A DNA stretch of 64,000 nucleotides from Squalus acanthias. Its lineage: Eukaryota. The translations under genes were made by a program, and so were the position numbers. Below are positions 1 to 32,356 of this stretch, piece after piece. The notes beneath the pieces were generated by a model. The model did no database searches, had not been told where the DNA came from, and saw only the letters and a list, made by a program, of their open reading frames with translations. The stretch is taken from positions 130,884,001 through 130,948,000 of the forward strand of contig CM059431.1 in assembly GCA_030390025.1 (NCBI GenBank). Direction: 5' to 3'. Numbering within the stretch: position 1 is the stretch's first letter; each line of letters opens with the position of its first letter.

Positions 1-1062
1 CTGCACATTGTCTCGAGCGTTGACCACAGATGTTCCCGTATTAAAAGCAGTGAACACATCGTTCACAACACCCCTTCTTTGTCTCCCCACCTGACCCAAA
101 ACTTCGTGTGGTGTGGTGTATAAGCTTGTTTTGTCAACCTCTGCAAAATCAAACTCATAAAATTGCCTGAACATGTTTGTTAACAGGACCTGGTACAATT
201 GTTCCGTTTCTTTGGGGCACCACTCTGGTAAATGCACCTCGGTGAGATTTAGAATCACCGAAGCCACCGCGTAATGTACCCCTTGATATAGTATCTGATC
301 TGTTGGCACCAGTACCAGACCATTCCCGGGCCCCTTAGTGGTTTTAGGGCACCCTTCCTCCTGAGCCAAAACCGCCGGAATCGTGGGCGGAGACTTGCGT
401 GGGCGCATGATGAGTTCAGTGGCGTTTACCGGGATCGGGGAGAATGGAGCTCCGCACCCCCTGGTGCTGACATCCCACCTCATCCCTTTCCCATCATCCT
501 GCCACTGTCGTAGGAAAAATATGGATATACCCTTGGGGCAAACGTACTTCGATCCCCATATACAAACATATATTCCCTCATCCGGTTCCCACCATTTGTC
601 CCAACAGACTTTCAATTGTCCGTTAGTCCCCGTAATTGTCCGATGGGTATTGTTATCCAATCGCTCCCACTTGACCGAGGAATTTCTCATAGTCTTGCTT
701 AACTTCCATAACCACCACCATTGGCTCAATGGGACCTTCCCATTGCACGTCAAACAAATCCTTTTGCCGACGGTGACGCTGATTCTGGGTGCAATGATCC
801 TCACCCTGGGACACAGTAAAGAAGTCTCTTTGTAGGCAAATCCGGATGCGCTGGAGTATTCCGTTGAATTCGTTCCCAGCCATCCCGGCCACCTTCCCTT
901 GTGGAAATAAGTGGCGATTTCCTCAGCCTCTCGCTCCCCGGTCCCATCCGTCGTGATGGGGGCCGTGTCCCCGGAGCAACCGAACACAACGACATCCTTG
1001 GTGAGGCCCCGATAGGCCAATCCATATCCGATCGTTGCGAGCACCATCAGAATCCTTTCCAT
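1..1062 (-). CDS. env: Envelope/fusion glycoprotein with an N-terminal Ig-like domain (354 aa visible, open at the window edge)
   Basis: Manual translation from ATG 1062 shows no stop down to base 1. Features: MERILMVLATIGYGLAY signal peptide; Ig motifs VTVGKRICLTC...W...DEGIYVC; five NxS/T sequons; RQRR followed by GVVNDVFTAFNTGTSVVN. Confidence 0.88.
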   Translation of the reverse strand, partial: MERILMVLATIGYGLAYRGLTKDVVVFGCSGDTAPITTDGTGEREAEEIATYFHKGRWPGWLGTNSTEYSSASGFAYKETSLLCPRVRIIAPRISVTVGKRICLTCNGKVPLSQWWWLWKLSKTMRNSSVKWERLDNNTHRTITGTNGQLKVCWDKWWEPDEGIYVCIWGSKYVCPKGISIFFLRQWQDDGKGMRWDVSTRGCGAPFSPIPVNATELIMRPRKSPPTIPAVLAQEEGCPKTTKGPGNGLVLVPTDQILYQGVHYAVASVILNLTEVHLPEWCPKETEQLYQVLLTNMFRQFYEFDFAEVDKTSLYTTPHEVLGQVGRQRRGVVNDVFTAFNTGTSVVNARDNVQ

Positions 1063-1333
1063 CTTTCCTGGTTCCTGTGATCAGATAAAATGATGTAGCC
1101 AGCCTCCCAAGAGTCTCTGGCTTTTGTGAAGGGTGAGCGGGTCCCTTGACCTCGTCTCACGTATAAAGACATGTATACTGGATAGACTTTAACTATTCCT
1201 ATCACTAACTCCCATCATTTTACCATTTACCTTTAAAATTAAACTACAAACTTACCAAACTTAAGAACACTATAAACTTAAAACTTATCCTAAACTTAAC
1301 TGTACAGCGCCGCCCGTTACCAGGGCGGCCTAC

Positions 1334-2375
1334 CTAAATTCTGCGAAGGCTGCCACGAGCTTTTCCCAGTGGCGGGGGGGCACTGACCCCTTCCTTTGAT
1401 CTGCCGCAGCCTGTCGTCGCTGCGCTGGGACTGGGATCTCCCTGGGCTGCCTTGAACTTACGCCTGGGGGTGTACGAGGGTTTTGGCCACAACTTCCTGG
1501 GCTGGGGTGTCCGACTTGACCTACGGAGGGCTACCTTGGGCAAGATTTCCAGGACCGACGGACCGGGAACCGAGACTTCCACCGTCACGGCCTGTGGTCC
1601 CACCACAGCCGCTGGCTCTGTCTCCCCTGGCTCCGCCCCCCTGGGCTCGGGATCTGCGGTTTCCGACTCCACCCTACTTGTCTCTACAGTAAGTGGATCT
1701 TCACTCACAATCCCTATCTCCCCTATGCTTGGGTCAAGGGCGGAACCTCCGTCCTCCGAACCCACCACCTCTTAGACCGGGTCACTACCTTGGTCGAGCT
1801 CTCCGAGCTCTTCCTCATCTGAATCCCAAGACCAAGAAAAGATCCTACACTTTTCCAGAATGTCCTCTCCCCTCACGCAGGCTGCTTTACCCTGCCTGTG
1901 TGCCCTGCGGTTCTACCCGGGGCTGAGAGTCCCCACTCGCAGGTTTGGCCCCTCCCCTATGACAGGCCACCGCCCCTGCTTGTGCCTTCTGTGAAATCTC
2001 GCCTGCTGGAGGCTGAGGATTTCTATTCTGTTTTAGTTTGGGCAACTCTGCTACCATGGCTTGCAACTGCGGGGTGGTGAATTCCCCCGGGGTTGTTGAG
2101 CAAACCATCCCTCTGGCTTTGGATAGGGCTTGGGTCAGACCTTTTATCCTTTCCTCACAGGGCCCATGGTTTAAATCCTCATACTCTCGGCTCCTGGCTA
2201 CCCTGTAGGCTGCCTTTATGTCTCTAAGCTGCCCTTCTAGCCCATCTATTTTCCCCATTAAGCGGGCGTTCTCCTCCCGCAAGGCCTGCTCTTTTAACCT
2301 GGCCTCCTTACAGGAGGCCCACTCCTGTGCGTGTCTTTCAAGGGGACACAGGTAGGCAGGCTGCGCCGGTTCCAG
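1334..2375 (-). pseudogene. ORF2 of the LTR element (Gag-paralogous coiled-coil module plus acidic/Pro-rich and basic tail), disrupted
   Basis: Continues in frame directly after the gag TGA. Covers track ORFs 1887..2282 and 1334..1768, which are linked by one frameshift (~1890) and one stop (~1773). No protease, RT or integrase core motifs seen. Confidence 0.65.
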
Positions 2376-4175
2376 TCAGAAGTCTGGGTTGTATGGGGCT
2401 GTTGCTACCTTTCCGTGTGAGGTCATAAGAGACCGCATGGCTCCTAACATGGACTCTATCGCATCGGGATGGATAGGCACACCAGCTCCTTTCTCAGAGA
2501 CAGGCGCTTGGGTTCGGACTGCGGGAGCTTTTTCCCTGGAGTCCTTCCAGGGATTCCTACAGTTTTTACGCCAGTGACCTGTCTTCCCGCACCCGTAACA
2601 AACACCACTGGTTTGTGGGGCGCGATTTCCCTCCTGATGCCACTCTTTCTGAGCCGGAGCTGCGGGCTTTGCCTCATGCACCTTTCCCTTAAGTGGACGC
2701 GCTCCCATGCTCCTAGTGTTCTGATACCCTATGGTGAGTCGATTCAGGACAGATTCCTCTGTTGTCTCGGGGTTAGTGGGATCAAACAACGCTCTGGCCT
2801 GCTCCCTGACGGCTGGCAAGCTGTTGGCTACCATGCACCTGAGCCAATGAGCTTTCCCGGCGCCGTCCAGATAGATGCGCTGTGGCGCACCTTGGCAGCT
2901 ACGCTGATATACTGGCCACAGTCTGTCGGCGAAAACCCGCGGGGGTTCTCCCTCCATCTGTACGGTCTGACCCAATCTGACGAACGGACCTTCGTCATCC
3001 GCCCCTAACACTTCTAGGACCTCGTCCCGTAAATCCCCATCGCTTTTATTTCCCTTCTTGCTCTCGTCGGAGAGACACTGAAGGATCGAGCTATCTAAAG
3101 TGAACAGCAACATCTTGGTCTTTTCCTCGTCGTCGCAGCCATTAATTGCTGCGGTCTGTTCTACTTCTCTAAAATGTACGGAAGGGTCGTCTGACTCGGA
3201 CAGCTTCCGTACATGGCTAATCATTGCTCTCAGCTGGTGTGAGCTGTGGGGCAATACAAGTTGGTTCAGGATATCCCCGTCTGCCCCATTTGCCCCATTC
3301 GGGCCTCTCTTATGACCTCGGACCGGACACATCGGTCCCGGTCTCGACGCTACCTCCGGGGATTGTCCTACCTCGGGAACCTTCTTCTCTATTTCCACCA
3401 CCTCCTCCCTTACCCAGGTTGCCGTATAGCTGGGTGGCGCGGAGGGCATAGTGGTATATACCTCTTCTGCTTTTTCCGGTAGGGATTTTGGGAATTCCCT
3501 ACCCACCTGTGGCTGGCTCGCTGACGGGCTGATGAGACACACCAAGCCGTTTGCCTTACTCAGGGACTCCCTCAGGTTCTCTATCTCCCTCTGGCAAACA
3601 CTGTGGTCGGCTCTCTCATGCCTATCCTCGAGGGCCATCTTGTATGCCGCCCTAACTCCCTTCAAGCTTTCTTCCTAAGCTTTTATCTGGCTAGCTAGGC
3701 GGATACACCGTTCTCTAATCCTTCCCTCGCTTAATTTTGCTTCTGTGACCTGACATTCTAGGTAATCAATTTTAGCCTCGTGGTGGTTGGCTACTATTTG
3801 GCGTTCCTGATGTAACGCATTCAATGATGCAATGAGTTTCTGTCCTCCCGTGACCTTTTCCTCCATCTCAGTTTCCAATTCCCTGATCTGAGCTGCCTGT
3901 GCTGCAATGACCTGGTCCGAAAGTTGGACTTGCTTCTTGTAGCACATCAGCCAGACCGCTTTCTCTACCGACTTCTTATGATCTTTACTACCTGTCCATT
4001 TGATGGCGGCGTCTAGCGGACGCTTATCCATCAGTAGGTCACTTATCCACCTTTTGGTTAAGTTAACCTTCCCAAACACATAGTCGGCTACCCTCTCATC
4101 CATCACATTTCACCTATTCAAACCAGGGTCTAAAACATTACTCTCCTGCTGCCAATGTCCTGCCGCGGTCGCCAT
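2376..4175 (-). pseudogene. gag: Gag polyprotein, 600 codons in one frame with two internal stops (TGA 4112-4110, TAG 3677-3675)
   Basis: Track ORFs 3675..4106 and 2376..3665 share a frame with ATG 4175. N-terminal coiled coil, capsid-like motifs (DPSVHFREVEQTAAINGCDDEEK; QMEGEPPRVFADRL), and CX2CX4HX4C knuckle CYGCGKTGHWRKNC at 2600-2559. Confidence 0.9.
4157..4174 (-). promoter_or_regulatory. Primer-binding site complementary to tRNA-Arg(TCG)
   Basis: Minus-strand TGGCGACCGCGGCAGGAC. The plus strand GTCCTGCCGCGGTCGCCA matches the 3' 18 nt (including CCA) of vertebrate tRNA-Arg(TCG) as recalled. Confidence 0.85.
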
Positions 4176-4179
4176 TTTC

Positions 4180-5948
4180 TGTAAGGGGGCATGTCTCAGA
4201 CGGTGCTGGTGCGAGGTTAGGCCTTCGTTGCCTAATACTATTGCTTGCTCTGGTCTCCAGCCAGCCTTTTTGCAATAAGCACCTGTGAGTGGTTCGACCC
4301 ACTCGCCCTTACGGTTCTAACACTGGACTTAGATGCAGGGAGCAGTAATGCAGGGAAAAACTCAAATAGACCCGGTTGAATAGTACGAAATGGAAATCTT
4401 TATTGCATGGCGTCTAAAATCATGAAATACATGTCATAGGCGCAAATCAAAGAGAGTACAAGTATACATACATTCATAAAGCTTGGTCTATGGAAATGGA
4501 GAACACACGGCACATTATACCTTAACCTTATTAAAAACCACCCTCCCGTAACACTACCTACACTACGTCTAGATTTGTAGGATCGTAAAACATGCTCACC
4601 ACTCGTGTTACTTCGGAGATTTTAAAGTGGGGCACTCAGCTCGTTTCGCTGCAGCGCCTGACTGTCACGTGTTTGGAAGGGTCTCTGCACCCCACTTGTT
4701 TACTTTTGCTGCTGCGAAAAGCAGGCCAGACTCCCTGTTGTCATGAAGAACTCGACGGAACTCGGATAAAATTCAAAGAAGAGTCTTCCTGTGTTCAACA
4801 CAGGTTGTAGTCGGTAGAACTCAAAGAAGAGTCCTGTATTTATATTTTCGGGCGCGGTCGGGGTTTACTGACCGTGGCGGCACGTGGAATTTCTTCTCGT
4901 CTCCTCGGGCCTCCGGGTCCAGACACCGTTTACCGACACTCGGGATGGTGTACCCTGTTACTTGCCCTTGTCGGGGCGGCTCGTACCGATTGAGCTCCAC
5001 CCAACACTTGAATAACTGACCAGTATGGCTAAGAGTCAAGAGTCAACAAAGTCCAGAGAGAAAATCGAGAGCCCACAAGTCAAGTGAGTTCATGAAGAGG
5101 CAAGCGAATAAGAGACCGATGGACATTTGTTCTCTATAGTTATAGTGATGTGTCCGCTTATCTCCCGCTCAAATCTTAATGTTTGTCCTTTGTGTAATAT
5201 TTGGCGCTCAAAACTCCCAGCATGGGGCGATTATCTTTTTTAACGGGTTTCGGTAGCACCTGAAACTGGCCAACTATCCGTTAATGTTTTCCCCATTGTT
5301 GGACCAGCCAGGATGTGTATGGATCGTCTCCCTGACTGGTTTTGGGGCCCCCCGAATACTTGCTTAATCACCCGTCGATGTCTCTCTCATTGTAGAGCCG
5401 GGGGGTATTTGTGTATTGATGTGTCTGGATGGGCCTTCGATTGCCCAGTACAATGATCCTTACTGTGCATAGGAAAATGATTCCAGCACTTATATCTTTG
5501 CTATTGTTCCAAATGCAAACGGGTTGCATCCTGTCTTTATCAGTGTTTACCGAGTATGATCCAATCTTATACTGAATGTATATTCAACGCCATCTTGTCT
5601 GCCCACTGTGTTTCTGGAAGCTTCTGCCACGATGCGCGGTGGCCATTTTACAGGCTTCTGTGTCCTTTATTATCAGGACAGCATTTCGTTTAATAAAACT
5701 GATCAACGAATCTGCTTCTCTTATGTTATTTTGAATCGCGATAATTGCGAAACTTTACAATTCCTAGCTTTTTCCTCCCAAAATGTATTACTTCATACTT
5801 GTCAACTTGAAATTACATCTGCTAGCTGTCCGCCCATGCTGCTAACCCATCTATGTCTTTACAGTCCTTCTAGCTGTTTGCCAAGTTCCCTCCTTTTGTG
5901 TCATCAGCAAATTTTGAGATTTATGCCCAAATCCAAATCGCCTATACA
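4180..5948 (-). repeat. 5' LTR (~1.77 kb)
   Basis: On the minus strand it begins TGTATAGG (5948) and ends CCCTTACA (4180), 5 nt before the PBS. TATAAATA at 4844-4837 and AATAAA at 4404-4399. The outer boundary is inferred because no second LTR is in the window. Confidence 0.75.
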
Positions 5949-28914: not shown

Positions 28915-30712
28915 CTAGCATACGGATACCAGTAGTAGGCAAAATGCTAGAATCCATTATTTGGGACGTGGTAACAGGGTACTTAGAAAATCATAAAATG
29001 ATTAGGCAGAGTCAACATGGTTTTATGAAAGGGAAATCATGTTTGACAAATCTGTTAAGAGTTGTTTGAAGATGTAACTAGTAGGATGGATAAGGGGAAA
29101 CCAGTGGATGTAGTGTATCTGGATTTTCAAAAACCATTTGATAAGGTGCCACACAAGAGGTTATTACACAAAATTAGGACTCAGGGTATTGGGGGTAATA
29201 TATTAGCATGAATTGAGGATTGATTAAGGGACAGAAAACAGAGAGTAGGAGGGAAAAATTGAGTCGCGCCCCCTTTGGGGCGCTAACTTCGCCGGGGCGC
29301 TACCTTTAGCGCCCCCGCGGCCAAAATTAATCGGTAGTGCCCCAAGAGGGAAGCGGGCCACTACTGGAAGCACCCCGCCTCCTTCTTGGGGCGCTGCGAG
29401 GAAATATCGCGCGCTACGTGCCGTGGTACTGCAGGCCTTCCTCCCCTTCTTAGAGGGGCCTTGCGCAGCGCGACCCGGGGCCCAGCTGGGCCACCAGGGA
29501 TTGGAGTGCCGGCAAAAGAGCCCGCCACTCAAGAGAAGTGCCAGGCTCACGGAGCGCAGCCGGCACTCGGGGGGGCTGAAGAGGAGGCCAGGGATGGCAA
29601 CGGGGGCAGGTGCTGGCAGGCCGCCCCAGCCACAGGTAGGCCCCCCTGACCCCGTCGGATATAGCGCCCGGTGGTAAGTCAGGGGGCGCTACCGAAGATC
29701 GTGGCCGGGGCGCGAGCGGGGCGCTGTGCACGGCGATGATGTTATCGCCGGCGGCGCAGCGCCGCAGGGCGCTAATGGTTACCGCCGCCGCTAACCTCCC
29801 GCTGAATTTCGTGGAAGGCGTTGGCGGCGATGCGCCCGGGCGCTAGTTGCTTTGCACCCCGTTAGCGCCCTCTTGGGGTACTAGTGGGGTACCGCAAGGA
29901 TCAGTGCTTGGGCCTCAGCTATTTACAATCTATATTAATGACTTCGATGAAGGGACTGAGTGTAACGTATCCAAGTTTGCTGATGATACAAAGTTTTTAG
30001 GTGGAAAAGTAAGCTGTGAGGAAGACGCAATGAGGCTGCAGAGAGATATAGACAGATTGACTAAGTGGGCAAGAACATGGCAAATGGAATACAATGTGGG
30101 GAAGTGTGAAGTTATCCACTTTGGTAGGAAAAACAAAAAAGCAGAATATTTTTTGAATGGTGAGAGACTGGGAAATGTTGCACTTAGAGGGACCTGGGTG
30201 TCCTTGTACATGAATCACAGAAAGTTAACATGCAGGTACAACAAGCAATTAGGAAAGCAAATGGTACATTAGCTTTTTGTTACAAAGGGATTAGAGTATA
30301 AGAGTAAAGAATTCTTACTACAATTATACAGGGCATTGGTGAGGCCAGACGTGGAGTACTGAGCACAGTTCTGGTCTCCTTACCTAAGGAAAGACATACT
30401 TGCCTTAGAGGGAGTGTAGCGAAGGTTCACTAGACTGGTTCCTGGGATGAGGGGATTGCCCTATGAGGAGCAATTGAGTAGACTAGGCCTATATTCCTTA
30501 GAGTTTAGAAGAATGAGAGGTGATCTATTTGAAACATTGAAACATAAAATTTTTAGAGGGGCTTGACAGGGTTAATCGTGGGAAAATTTTTTCCCTGGCA
30601 GCGGAATCTAGAACAGGGGGGTCACAGTCAGAGAATAAGGGATAGGCCATTTAGGACTGAGATGAGGAGACACTCAAAGGGTTGTGAATCTTTCGAATTC
30701 TTATGTTCTTAT
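28915..30712 (+). mobile_element. CR1 LINE fragment interrupted by a GC-rich MITE
   Basis: GKMLESII...SQHGFMKGKSCLTNLL; SGVPQGSVLGPQLFTIYINDFDEG...FADDTK. Confidence 0.93.
29248..29878 (+). mobile_element. GC/CpG-rich Harbinger-type MITE related at its ends to the 890 bp family; right end truncated
   Basis: Starts GGGAAAAATTGAGTCGCGCCCC and ends GTTAGCGCCCTCTT, as in copy 1. Confidence 0.75.
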
Positions 30713-30729
30713 ATTTTTATAAAGAATAT

Positions 30730-32356
30730 AGATACACACAGAGACAGCGAGAGTGAACCACAGATACACACAGAGACAGCGAGAGTGAGCCACAGATACA
30801 CACAGAGACACCGAGAGTGAAGCACAGATACACACAGAGACACTGAGAGTGAACCACAGATACACACAGAGACACTGAGAGTGAAGCACAGATACACACA
30901 GAGACACTGAGAGTGAACCACAGATACACACAGAGACACTGAGAGTGAAGCACAGATACACACAGAGACACCGAGAGTGAACCACAGATACACACAGAGA
31001 CACTGAGAGTGAACCACAGATACACACAGAGACACTGAGAGTGAACCACAGATACACACAGAGACACTGAGAGTGAACCACAGATACACACAGAGACACT
31101 GAGAGTGAACCACAGATACACACAGAGACACTGAGAGTGAACCACAGATACACACAGAGACACTGAGAGTGAACCACAGATACACACAGAGACACTGAGA
31201 GTGAACCACAGATACACACAGAGACAGCGAGAGTGAGCCACAGATACACACAGAGACACTGAGAGTGAACCACAGATACACACAGAGACACTGAGAGTGA
31301 ACCACAGATACACACAGAGACACTGAGAGTGAACCACAGATACACACAGAGACACTGAGAGTGAACCACAGATACACACAGAGACAGCGAGAGTGAGCCA
31401 CAGATACACACAGAGACACTGAGCGTGAAGCACAGATACACACAGAGACACTGAGAGTGAACCACAGATACACACAGAGACACCGAGAGTGAACCACAGA
31501 TACACACAGAGACACCGAGAGTGAACCACAGATACACACAGAGACACCGAGAGTGAAGCACAGATACACACAGAGACACCGAGAGTGAACCACAGATACA
31601 CATAGAGACAGCGAGAGTGAACCACAGATACACACAGAGACACTGAGAGTGAACCACAGATACACACAGAGACACTGAGAGTGAACCACAGATACACACA
31701 GAGACACCGAGAGTGAACCACAGATACACACAGAGACACCGAGAGTGAACCACAGATACACACAGAGACACTGAGAGTGAACCACAGATACACACAGAGA
31801 CACCGAGAGTGAACCACAGATACACACAGAGACACCGAGAGTGAACCACAGATACACACAGAGACACTGAGAGTGAACCACAGATACACACAGAGACACT
31901 GAGAGTGAACCACAGATACACACAGAGACAGCGAGAGTGAGCCACAGATACACACAGAGACACCGAGAGTGAAGCACAGATACACACAGAGACACTGAGC
32001 GTGAAGCACAGATACACACAGAGACACTGAGAGTGAAGCACAGATACACACAGAGACACCGAGAGTGAACCACAGATACACACAGAGACACTGAGAGTGA
32101 ACCACAGATACACACAGAGACACTGAGAGTGAAGCACAGATACACACAGAGACACTGAGAGTGAAGCACAGATACACACAGAGACACTGAGAGTGAACCA
32201 CAGATACACACAGAGACACCGAGAGTGAAGCACAGATACACACAGAGACACTGAGCGTGAAGCACAGATACACACAGAGACACTGAGAGTGAAGCACAGA
32301 TACACACAGAGACACTGAGAGTGAACCACAGATACACACAGAGACACCGAGAGTGA
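30730..32356. repeat. 32 bp minisatellite, ~51 copies
   Basis: Unit GAACCACAGATACACACAGAGACACTGAGAGT with a few recurrent variants. Confidence 0.97.

Follow-up and report, generated by a model that had tools for sequence, protein, structure and literature searches.

A putative immunoglobulin-superfamily head on the F-type envelope protein of an endogenous retrovirus-like element in Squalus acanthias

In paramyxoviruses, attachment is the task of a separate protein (HN, H or G) and fusion that of F. The envelope proteins (Envs) published for lokiretroviruses look like bare F, so that it is not evident by what means these retroviruses find a cell. In the genome of Squalus acanthias, a copy of an endogenous retrovirus-like element lies at one end of a stretch of 64,000 nucleotides (GenBank assembly GCA_030390025.1, contig CM059431.1, positions 130,884,001 to 130,948,000), referred to in its full length as the window, and all of its features are on the minus strand. 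The 5' part of its env open reading frame (ORF), i.e. 354 codons for amino acids (aa) 1-354, occupies positions 1..1062, where the window edge cuts the frame. For the part of Env beyond the window and for its structure, a comparison copy with an open env (protein P0002) was used. By combining sequence profiles, predicted structures, copies in the same genome and distant relatives, we found that aa 92-188 (499..789) very probably constitute a genuine immunoglobulin (Ig)-superfamily domain of V/I type, on the evidence of profiles and motifs, and that the core behind it is almost certainly a class I fusogen of the paramyxovirus/pneumovirus F type.

An Ig-like domain had been placed at 517..789 by the original prediction, which was made from the DNA letters without database searches. 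Mapping of the ORF onto the window with a script put aa 92 at 787-789 and aa 182 at 517-519, in full agreement with the claim, and all of the residues quoted in support are present in the ORF: PRISVTVGKRICLTC ends at C106, the run WWWLW covers 115-119, and both GQLKVCW and DEGIYVC (ending at C167) are found. The V/I-set signature that had been read into these residues, with a cysteine spacing of about 60 aa, is likewise borne out. C106 and C167 are 61 residues apart, where ~55-75 is usual for V/I-set domains, and both align to the canonical cysteines of JAM-A in the profile alignment, and the strand-C tryptophan (W115-W119), typically ~10-15 residues after the first cysteine, and the D-x-G-x-Y-x-C motif (161-167) are located at the positions expected for an Ig domain. 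Accordingly, the strand elements may be assigned as B at C106, C at W115-119, E at ...VCW154 and F at D161-E-G-I-Y-V-C167, with a probable G at 178-188. Compared to typical host V/I-set domains, the Env domain has an extra candidate cysteine pair, C103/C153, plus C175, and N-glycosylation sequons are situated inside it at N127 and N137. The full set of Env cysteines within aa 1-354 is 29, 84, 103, 106, 153, 167, 175, 203, 238 and 282.

Profile searches were run against 177,635 PDB sequences. A domain profile of eight sequences reached E 5.2e-5 at best and aligned to JAML and CD8-alpha over the full domain; its best 60 rows were of the antibody, T-cell receptor (TCR), CD8, JAM, Kit and contactin type. 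With 17 sequences, the domain profile matched JAM-A (1f97) at E 2.2e-9, VEGFR1 at 2.6e-7 and DIP-alpha at 6.2e-7. Out of 658 matches at E<=1 the best 60 were all Ig-superfamily members, JAML and CRTAM among them, and the alignments set the B-strand cysteine, the C-strand tryptophan and GxYxC on canonical Ig positions. A 718-position profile of six whole Env sequences, on the other hand, gave 0 PDB matches at E<=10, and a single-sequence search with the whole Env gave 0 as well; the abundance of antibodies in the PDB is thus not in itself enough to yield Ig matches. Within the family, the consensus core of the domain reads V..EG..v.l.C ... W ... L.W P....RH.G.Y.C, where RH.G.Y.C or QDGMVAC are the counterparts of DxGxYxC, and the motif is maintained across Env lineages with just 15-25% identity in the head region. 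As a lead only, the ten best family-bearing matches in the ESM Atlas all belonged to Ig families, with scores of 0.88-0.90.

The assignment of the core comes from structure. When the model was compared to the PDB with Foldseek, the top rows were all paramyxovirus or pneumovirus F proteins, headed by F of human parainfluenza virus 3 (hPIV3; 1ztm_B, E 7.2e-11, probability 1.00) and followed by those of respiratory syncytial virus (RSV), Langya virus, Newcastle disease virus, parainfluenza virus 5 and Nipah virus. Structure comparison with VIA gave a best Z of 12.2 (8dmj_A, 289 residues aligned, root-mean-square deviation 5.6), and Z ranged from 12.2 to 9.9 across the 50 entries shown. In these comparisons, model residues from 243/245 to ~650 were aligned on F chain residues from ~26-34 to ~430. 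The N-terminus of mature F thereby aligns to Env residue ~245, so that aa 20-240 are without a counterpart in F, i.e. an added head. Set beside the F proteins of hPIV3 (1ztm), Nipah virus (8dmj) and RSV (3rki), Env is alike in the fold of aa 245-650, in the F2/F1 plan, in the fusion peptide following a basic site, in the two helical repeats and in the transmembrane anchor, whereas F proteins have nothing that matches aa 20-240. The predicted local distance difference test score (pLDDT) of the core was 80-95 over ~235-310 and 430-650 in the full-length model.

The sequence of the core agrees with this plan. C238, P239, P245, G248 and L249, in an F2-like opening motif, are invariant in the six-sequence Env alignment. 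RQRR at 327-330, where cleavage is predicted, is followed by the hydrophobic, glycine-rich GVVNDVFTAFNTGTSVV; a long helix at 350-444 and a second one at 680-712 were modeled, and the strongest hydrophobic window, 734-752, is the putative anchor. The whole-Env sequence searches of the PDB came back empty, and the relationship to F is apparent only in the fold and in weak Pfam matches. PF00523 (Fusion_gly) is the Pfam family with the largest number of matching members in the 96-row alignment, namely 6 of the 96, with a best E of 0.0047; P0002 itself had no match to it at E<=1, and an above-threshold match was not reached.

Among the predicted viral structures in BFVD, Foldseek retrieved arlivirus and lispivirus glycoproteins, baculovirus F, paramyxovirus F and two walleye epsilonretrovirus Envs, at E 1.3e-13 to 1e-9, in long multi-domain alignments with low TM-scores (0.13-0.31). 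The two walleye matches, both to exogenous fish viruses, are an observation in their own right: Env of walleye epidermal hyperplasia virus 1 was found at E 6.4e-13 and that of walleye dermal sarcoma virus at E 1.4e-11, which, as far as models with such low TM-scores go, suggests that the epsilonretrovirus Env also has an F-type core.

The original prediction had further described the Ig domain as joined by a proline-rich linker to the fusion subunit behind it. It is indeed located ahead of the fusion machinery and the linker is there, but the two are not joined directly, as an F2-like segment (aa 238-326) and RQRR intervene. From the N-terminus, Env opens with a putative signal peptide, MERILMVLATIGYGLAYRG (aa 1-19, 1006..1062), which is suggested by its hydrophobic sequence and modeled as a helix at 3-11. 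The following N-terminal region (aa 20-91, 790..1005), with pLDDT <50 in both structure models, is recognized in alignment by the motif GRWPGWLGxNSxxYSS, by C29 and C84, and by N65; in the longer form GRWPGWLGxNSxxYSSxxGFxY the motif is kept in the skate, sawshark and whale-shark relatives. After the Ig domain comes the proline-rich linker (aa 189-237, 352..498), with C203, N213 and a pLDDT below 40, whose most proline-rich stretch, APFSPIPVNATELIMRPRKSPPTIP, spans ~aa 205-229. The F2-like segment (85..351, pLDDT 81-94) was delimited by alignment and by VIA and opens at the CP....GP.NGL motif. It is followed by the polybasic, furin-type site RQRR (73..84), basic sites being aligned here in 6/6 Env sequences, and by the start of the F1-like subunit with the putative fusion peptide GVVNDVFTAFNTGTSVVNA (aa 331-354, 1..72), which runs into the model helix 350-444.

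A single env gene must provide for both binding and fusion, and from this we infer that an N-terminal Ig domain on a flexible tether would be the attachment module. Env would then be a one-chain attachment-plus-fusion glycoprotein, made up of signal peptide, head (aa 20-237), F2-like segment, RQRR and F1-like subunit. In such a protein, the head would consist of the 70-residue N-terminal region, one V/I-type Ig domain and the proline-rich linker, and the F1-like subunit of fusion peptide, long heptad-repeat helix, beta-rich core, second helix and an anchor at ~734-752. The Ig head would do in cis the job that paramyxoviruses leave to the separate HN, H or G. After cleavage at RQRR, the fragment of head plus F2 would remain joined to F1. 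In F proteins F2 and F1 are held by a disulfide, and the candidate cysteines for such a bond would be C282 and C425, the latter being invariant in the six-sequence alignment. Engagement of a receptor would release the F-like core, which would refold and fuse the membranes. The domain itself may have been taken long ago from a host cell-surface Ig-superfamily gene, before the shark and frog Env lineages split, and may later have been lost or replaced in some of them; that it derives from a host is likely.

The Ig domain is the commonest cell-surface recognition fold, and comparable arrangements are found elsewhere. Herpes simplex gD and the receptor-binding domain of the murine leukaemia virus (MLV) surface subunit (SU) both have Ig-like cores and are outer, N-terminal receptor binders that signal to a fusion machine. 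Of the two, gD acts on gB/gH-gL as a protein of its own, and the MLV domain, which belongs to a gamma-type Env, does not show the classical sequence signature of Ig domains. To our knowledge, neither is fused to an F-type fusogen, and no homology to them is claimed. The likeness to JAM-A (1f97) is of low identity, and the Env domain is part of a viral fusion glycoprotein and not of an adhesion receptor.

The domain is by no means confined to the copy in the window. A search of the whole genome (3.7 Gb) with the env ORF gave 7836 candidate places, and in all 115 copies scored, aa 1-354 are covered at 92-100% identity, Ig domain included; whether related copies carry it was among the checks originally suggested. 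A 789-codon open frame was counted by hand in 39 of these 115, or about a third; counted from the ATG, env is 783 codons long in open-frame copies. Among named proteins, the closest belong to a skate, a sawshark and the whale shark, which points to a cartilaginous fish as host. In comparison with the skate proteins, the Ig domain is 73-75% identical and F2 81-85%; in the sawshark protein identity is 67% in the Ig domain, 48% in its N-terminal flank and 51% in the linker. Two gene models of the sawshark Pristiophorus japonicus, P0004 ('Niban 1-like') and P0005 ('zinc finger protein ZFP2-like'), have pieces of the Env family joined to host sequence, and may be annotation chimeras or exonised fragments.

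Selection was estimated from 21 copies picked for their open frames, i.e. 210 pairs, which are pairs of shared ancestry, by summed pairwise Nei-Gojobori counts with no site model. The 783-codon env ORF was uninterrupted in all 21 copies retrieved, and the ratio of nonsynonymous to synonymous proportions of differences (pN/pS) was 0.21 for the whole Env (pS 0.10). Along the protein it came to 0.23 in aa 1-91, 0.38 in the Ig domain, 0.49 in the linker (the highest of all regions), 0.12 in F2, 0.22 in the fusion peptide and first repeat, 0.20 in the core and 0.17 in the C-terminal part. Env is thus under purifying selection, head included, and the constraint on the head is weaker than that on the fusion machine. 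This pattern indicates that most of the divergence among the 21 copies accrued while Env was needed, with its head. With thousands of candidate copies in the genome and many open env frames under purifying selection, the element bears on the issue of reinfection versus retrotransposition.

Among wider relatives the picture is mixed: divergent shark, skate and frog Envs have the head, and others do not. An iterative hidden Markov model (HMM) ties the Ig domain to P0014 from bamboo shark, to four further lineages in the same genome, to the frog proteins P0020 and P0047, and to a further protein, P0039. When P0014 was used as query against this genome, 83 matches of 34-80% identity were obtained (11,727 candidates, 61 scored). 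Thirty divergent same-genome Env loci (L011-L040) were retrieved for comparison; such lineages are mostly broken, and in several of them the Ig head occurs in a version of its own. Distant full-length relatives align to Env only from ~aa 229 onward. The motif CP....GP..G(L/I) is invariant in the family and marks the start of the F2-like segment. In Ig-bearing Envs this motif is found at 237 (P0002), 227 (L014), 188 (P0020), 182 (P0014), 154 (P0039) and 149 (P0047). In the head-less P0042, P0049 and P0052 it is found at 19-22, directly after an evident signal peptide, which leaves ~215 extra residues between signal peptide and motif (at aa 238) in the Env studied here. Where the Ig domain would be, P0013 (Mustelus) and P0024 and P0032 (both Pristiophorus) have a cysteine-rich N-terminal module of ~130 residues. 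Against the family Ig HMM, the module of P0013 and P0024 scored 0-2 bits, too low for it to be recognized as Ig, even though its 'ICFTC ... SLYVC' spacing is similar to that of the query; it is either a replacement or an Ig domain changed beyond recognition.

A maximum-likelihood tree was built from the core only, with the N-terminal modules removed. It is unrooted and small, with 13 rows, three of them on long branches. P0002 grouped with the P0013 lineage (100/99), its nearest distant relative, and the Ig-bearing P0039 grouped with the head-less P0042 (89/94). Rows with an Ig domain occurred in all three main groups, and for the 10 rows whose state is known, presence or absence of the head needs at least three changes. 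Most simply, the head would be old and have undergone several losses or replacements; repeated gain is a possible alternative. If the head was captured at all, the capture is old and family-wide and predates this element.

As to what the head does, we put the probability that receptor binding is its main role at roughly 0.55, arguing from analogy. A number of points weigh against that role. The case for it is one of position and analogy, and a pN/pS of 0.38 in the Ig domain amounts to constraint without implying any specific function. Head-less relatives and the published lokiretrovirus Envs presumably work, so the F-like core needs no Ig head, and the conserved region aa 20-91 may share or carry the true binding function. 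The domains matched best in the PDB (JAM-A, VEGFR, DIPs) are of a generic V/I-set kind. Neither a host donor gene nor a host Ig protein was found by an exhaustive protein search (1.84 billion representatives, 51 matches) or by a search with the Ig-domain alignment, so the closest host relative that the original prediction had proposed to look for did not turn up in the protein searches. Word-indexed protein searches, limited to 8000 candidates each, also returned no new lineages and no host Ig proteins, their matches numbering at least 3 for the whole Env, at least 5 for the six-sequence alignment and at least 4 for the Ig-domain alignment. The Ig models of Pfam, also suggested as a check, stayed below the gathering score in all 17 family members. 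Ig_3 gave E 0.61 and 11.1 bits for the window ORF, E 0.13 and 13.2 bits for P0002 and 14 bits for the domain alone, where the cut-off is 30, and sub-threshold matches among the 17 segments were to Ig_3 in six (best E 8.4e-4) and to V-set, I-set and ig in one each. Structure prediction was of low confidence here: a model of aa 20-235 from nine sequences had a mean pLDDT of 39.8, with a low-confidence strand at 180-188, and the full-length model from 96 sequences had a pLDDT of 45-64 over aa 93-170 and no G strand. The low-confidence strands of the latter (93-96, 102-107, 115-121, 141-146, 149-154 and 161-170) do fall where A', B, C, D, E and F would lie in an Ig domain. Given the low pLDDT, the assignment of the Ig fold relies on the sequence profiles.

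Sub-threshold Pfam scores in every member and low AlphaFold confidence are also what could be expected if the Ig signature had come about by chance or belonged to some other beta-rich fold. We hold this to be very improbable in view of profile E-values down to 2.2e-9 with full-domain alignments on canonical positions, of the 0 PDB matches for the whole-Env profile, and of a motif that survives across lineages at 15-25% identity. If the fold is accepted, the head may still be a cap, clamp or shield, i.e. a stabiliser of the prefusion trimer, a glycan cover or an immune decoy, with attachment left to aa 20-91, to the F core or to unspecific contacts. The two sequons in the Ig domain (N127, N137) fit such a role, as do the conservation of aa 20-91 among close relatives, the existence of head-less relatives, in which fusion is independent of a head, and the weaker constraint on the Ig domain than on the F parts (0.38 vs 0.12-0.22). 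We nevertheless consider it unlikely, since a particle with one env gene needs attachment somewhere and an N-terminal surface Ig domain is the obvious candidate, and since the domain exceeds both of its flanks in identity to the sawshark protein (67% vs 48% and 51%), which would be unusual for a mere glycan shield. JAM-type molecules bind via their Ig domains, and with JAM-A as the best solved match and JAML and CRTAM among the others, the head might instead mimic an adhesion molecule of the JAM/CAR/nectin kind, whose Ig-Ig contacts would drive cell-to-cell spread or syncytia rather than entry of free particles. Scores are similar, however, for VEGFR, DIPs, antibodies and TCRs, as is the case for generic V/I-set matches, and the host donor was not found; the idea is moreover a special case of receptor binding, and on its own we judge it quite improbable. 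Finally, the possibility that misassembly or a single rearrangement in this copy brought a host exon into env is refuted by the presence of the Ig domain in 115/115 copies and 21/21 open ORFs. The same domain is also found at the same place in proteins of other species, and nothing supports such an event directly, the only joints of env pieces to host genes being those in the sawshark models P0004 and P0005.

If receptor binding by the Ig head is indeed what happens, a head placed before F2 would be a simple answer to how retroviruses with an F-type Env find their cells. It would also be a case of natural modular retargeting of an F-type fusogen, in which related Envs with the head, without it and with another module can be compared. 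The isolated Ig head is in addition a defined ligand for a receptor search in elasmobranch cells.

We could find no description of an Ig domain on the F-type Env of a retroelement in full-text searches of the literature, and the architecture had originally not been recognized from standard retroviral or errantiviral Envs; the Env is a paramyxovirus-F-type fusogen by Foldseek and VIA and not a standard retroviral one. In the parts available of the lokiretrovirus literature, the terms 'immunoglobulin' and 'Ig-like' did not occur (PMC7947760, for 'immunoglobulin' only; 10.1101/2023.10.26.564294; PMC13709493; PMC9040795; PMC12440569), and a preprint on anamniote Envs, as far as it was accessible, deals with gamma-type Env only (10.1101/2021.11.23.469661). 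The F-type Env of a Loki-like vertebrate retroelement is of a known kind, and it is the Ig head, its spread over sharks, skates and frogs, and its pattern of gain and loss that we could not find described. One exception is the automatic UniRef name of the bamboo-shark homolog P0014, 'Ig-like domain-containing protein'.

According to the accessible part of the original report, lokiretroviruses are vertebrate long terminal repeat (LTR) elements whose pol has a tether/RNase H pair and whose Env is related to the F of Mononegavirales (PMC7947760). The element studied here matches in both respects, with RT_RNaseH, RNase_H and integrase in its pol and an Env of the same plan with an F fold. The lokiretrovirus Env is described there as having a signal peptide, RXKR, a fusion peptide, a coiled coil and a transmembrane anchor, and a similarity to PF00523 at E 2.2e-7 (Wang and Han 2021, PMC7947760). 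Eight of the 23 consensus env genes in its supplement were viewed as DNA. In seven of these, judged by eye, the F2 start 'EPGP..GIVL' comes directly after the signal peptide with no head, and the polybasic site follows ~370-400 nt from the start; the eighth, Loki-Lch, has a different beginning, which is uninterpretable by eye. The integrase motif 'P(Y/F)E.MTGR.M..P.H.L' appears to be common to our element and the Pol sequences of the supplement, again by eye and as a lead. In the same report, as far as available, lokiretroviruses were found in 0/6 chondrichthyan genomes, Chiloscyllium punctatum and Rhincodon typus included (PMC7947760), and these are the very species from which our homologs P0014 and P0018, respectively, come. 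Either the screen missed such elements or they belong to a different reverse transcriptase (RT) lineage. By pol and Env the element is Loki-like and a candidate member of the lokiretroviruses. In either case, retroelements with an F-type Env are extended to the cartilaginous fishes, where the 2021 screen, in its accessible part, reported none of the lokiretroviruses (PMC7947760).

A wider scenario can tentatively be put together from all this, and we regard it as possible rather than probable. Cartilaginous fishes and frogs would harbor undescribed Loki-like retroviruses whose F-type fusogen gained a host-derived Ig head once, long ago, and so became a self-sufficient attachment-plus-fusion Env. 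The head would since have acted as a swappable cassette, lost at least twice and replaced by a cysteine-rich module in one shark lineage. In the genome of S. acanthias the element would have spread by infection and not by intracellular copying, under selection for a working Env (pN/pS 0.21, copies ~10% apart at silent sites), and recently enough for many env frames to still be open.

The remaining features of the locus are those of the element itself. The reference copy has two LTRs of 1640 bp, 98.5% identical, and measures ~12.6 kb in the order LTR-gag-pol-env-LTR. Its pol contains RVT_1, RT_RNaseH (E 1.7e-13), RNase_H (E 4e-19), Integrase_H2C2 and rve, along with a weak Tf2-type SH3, which together with Integrase_H2C2 is a gypsy/Loki-like feature; the double RNase H is the arrangement of retroviruses and lokiretroviruses. 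In the window, the 3' end of pol (the integrase tail) is left as a remnant at 1334..1953, as determined by blastn against a pol-bearing copy and by ORF comparison, and ~3.76 kb of pol is absent between it and the gag region. The latter (2376..4106), identified from ORFs and Pfam, includes an ORF of 429 codons that encodes a CCHC zinc knuckle (zf-CCHC, E 8.6e-4, 19.7 bits, cut-off 20.8) and, upstream, a 143-codon coiled-coil ORF. The two are split by a stop codon, and in the open-frame copy they form one ORF of 603 codons. The 5' LTR was placed at 4198..5759, with approximate bounds, by blastn against both LTRs of another copy. As the env frame, too, stops at codon 551, beyond the window, the copy is defective, and its parent family is a very high-copy, evolutionarily young endogenous retrovirus-like element. 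Contigs from four sequencing runs of two studies, whose library type is a guess, covered 30/30 bins of window positions 1-5800 with no leader-env joint, and are uninformative on expression. Elsewhere in the window, three other ORFs of more than 150 codons had no Pfam match, and a 300-codon ORF on the minus strand (30701-31603) had a sub-threshold match to the C2 family PF25334 (E 1.7e-4, 22.1 bits, cut-off 27).

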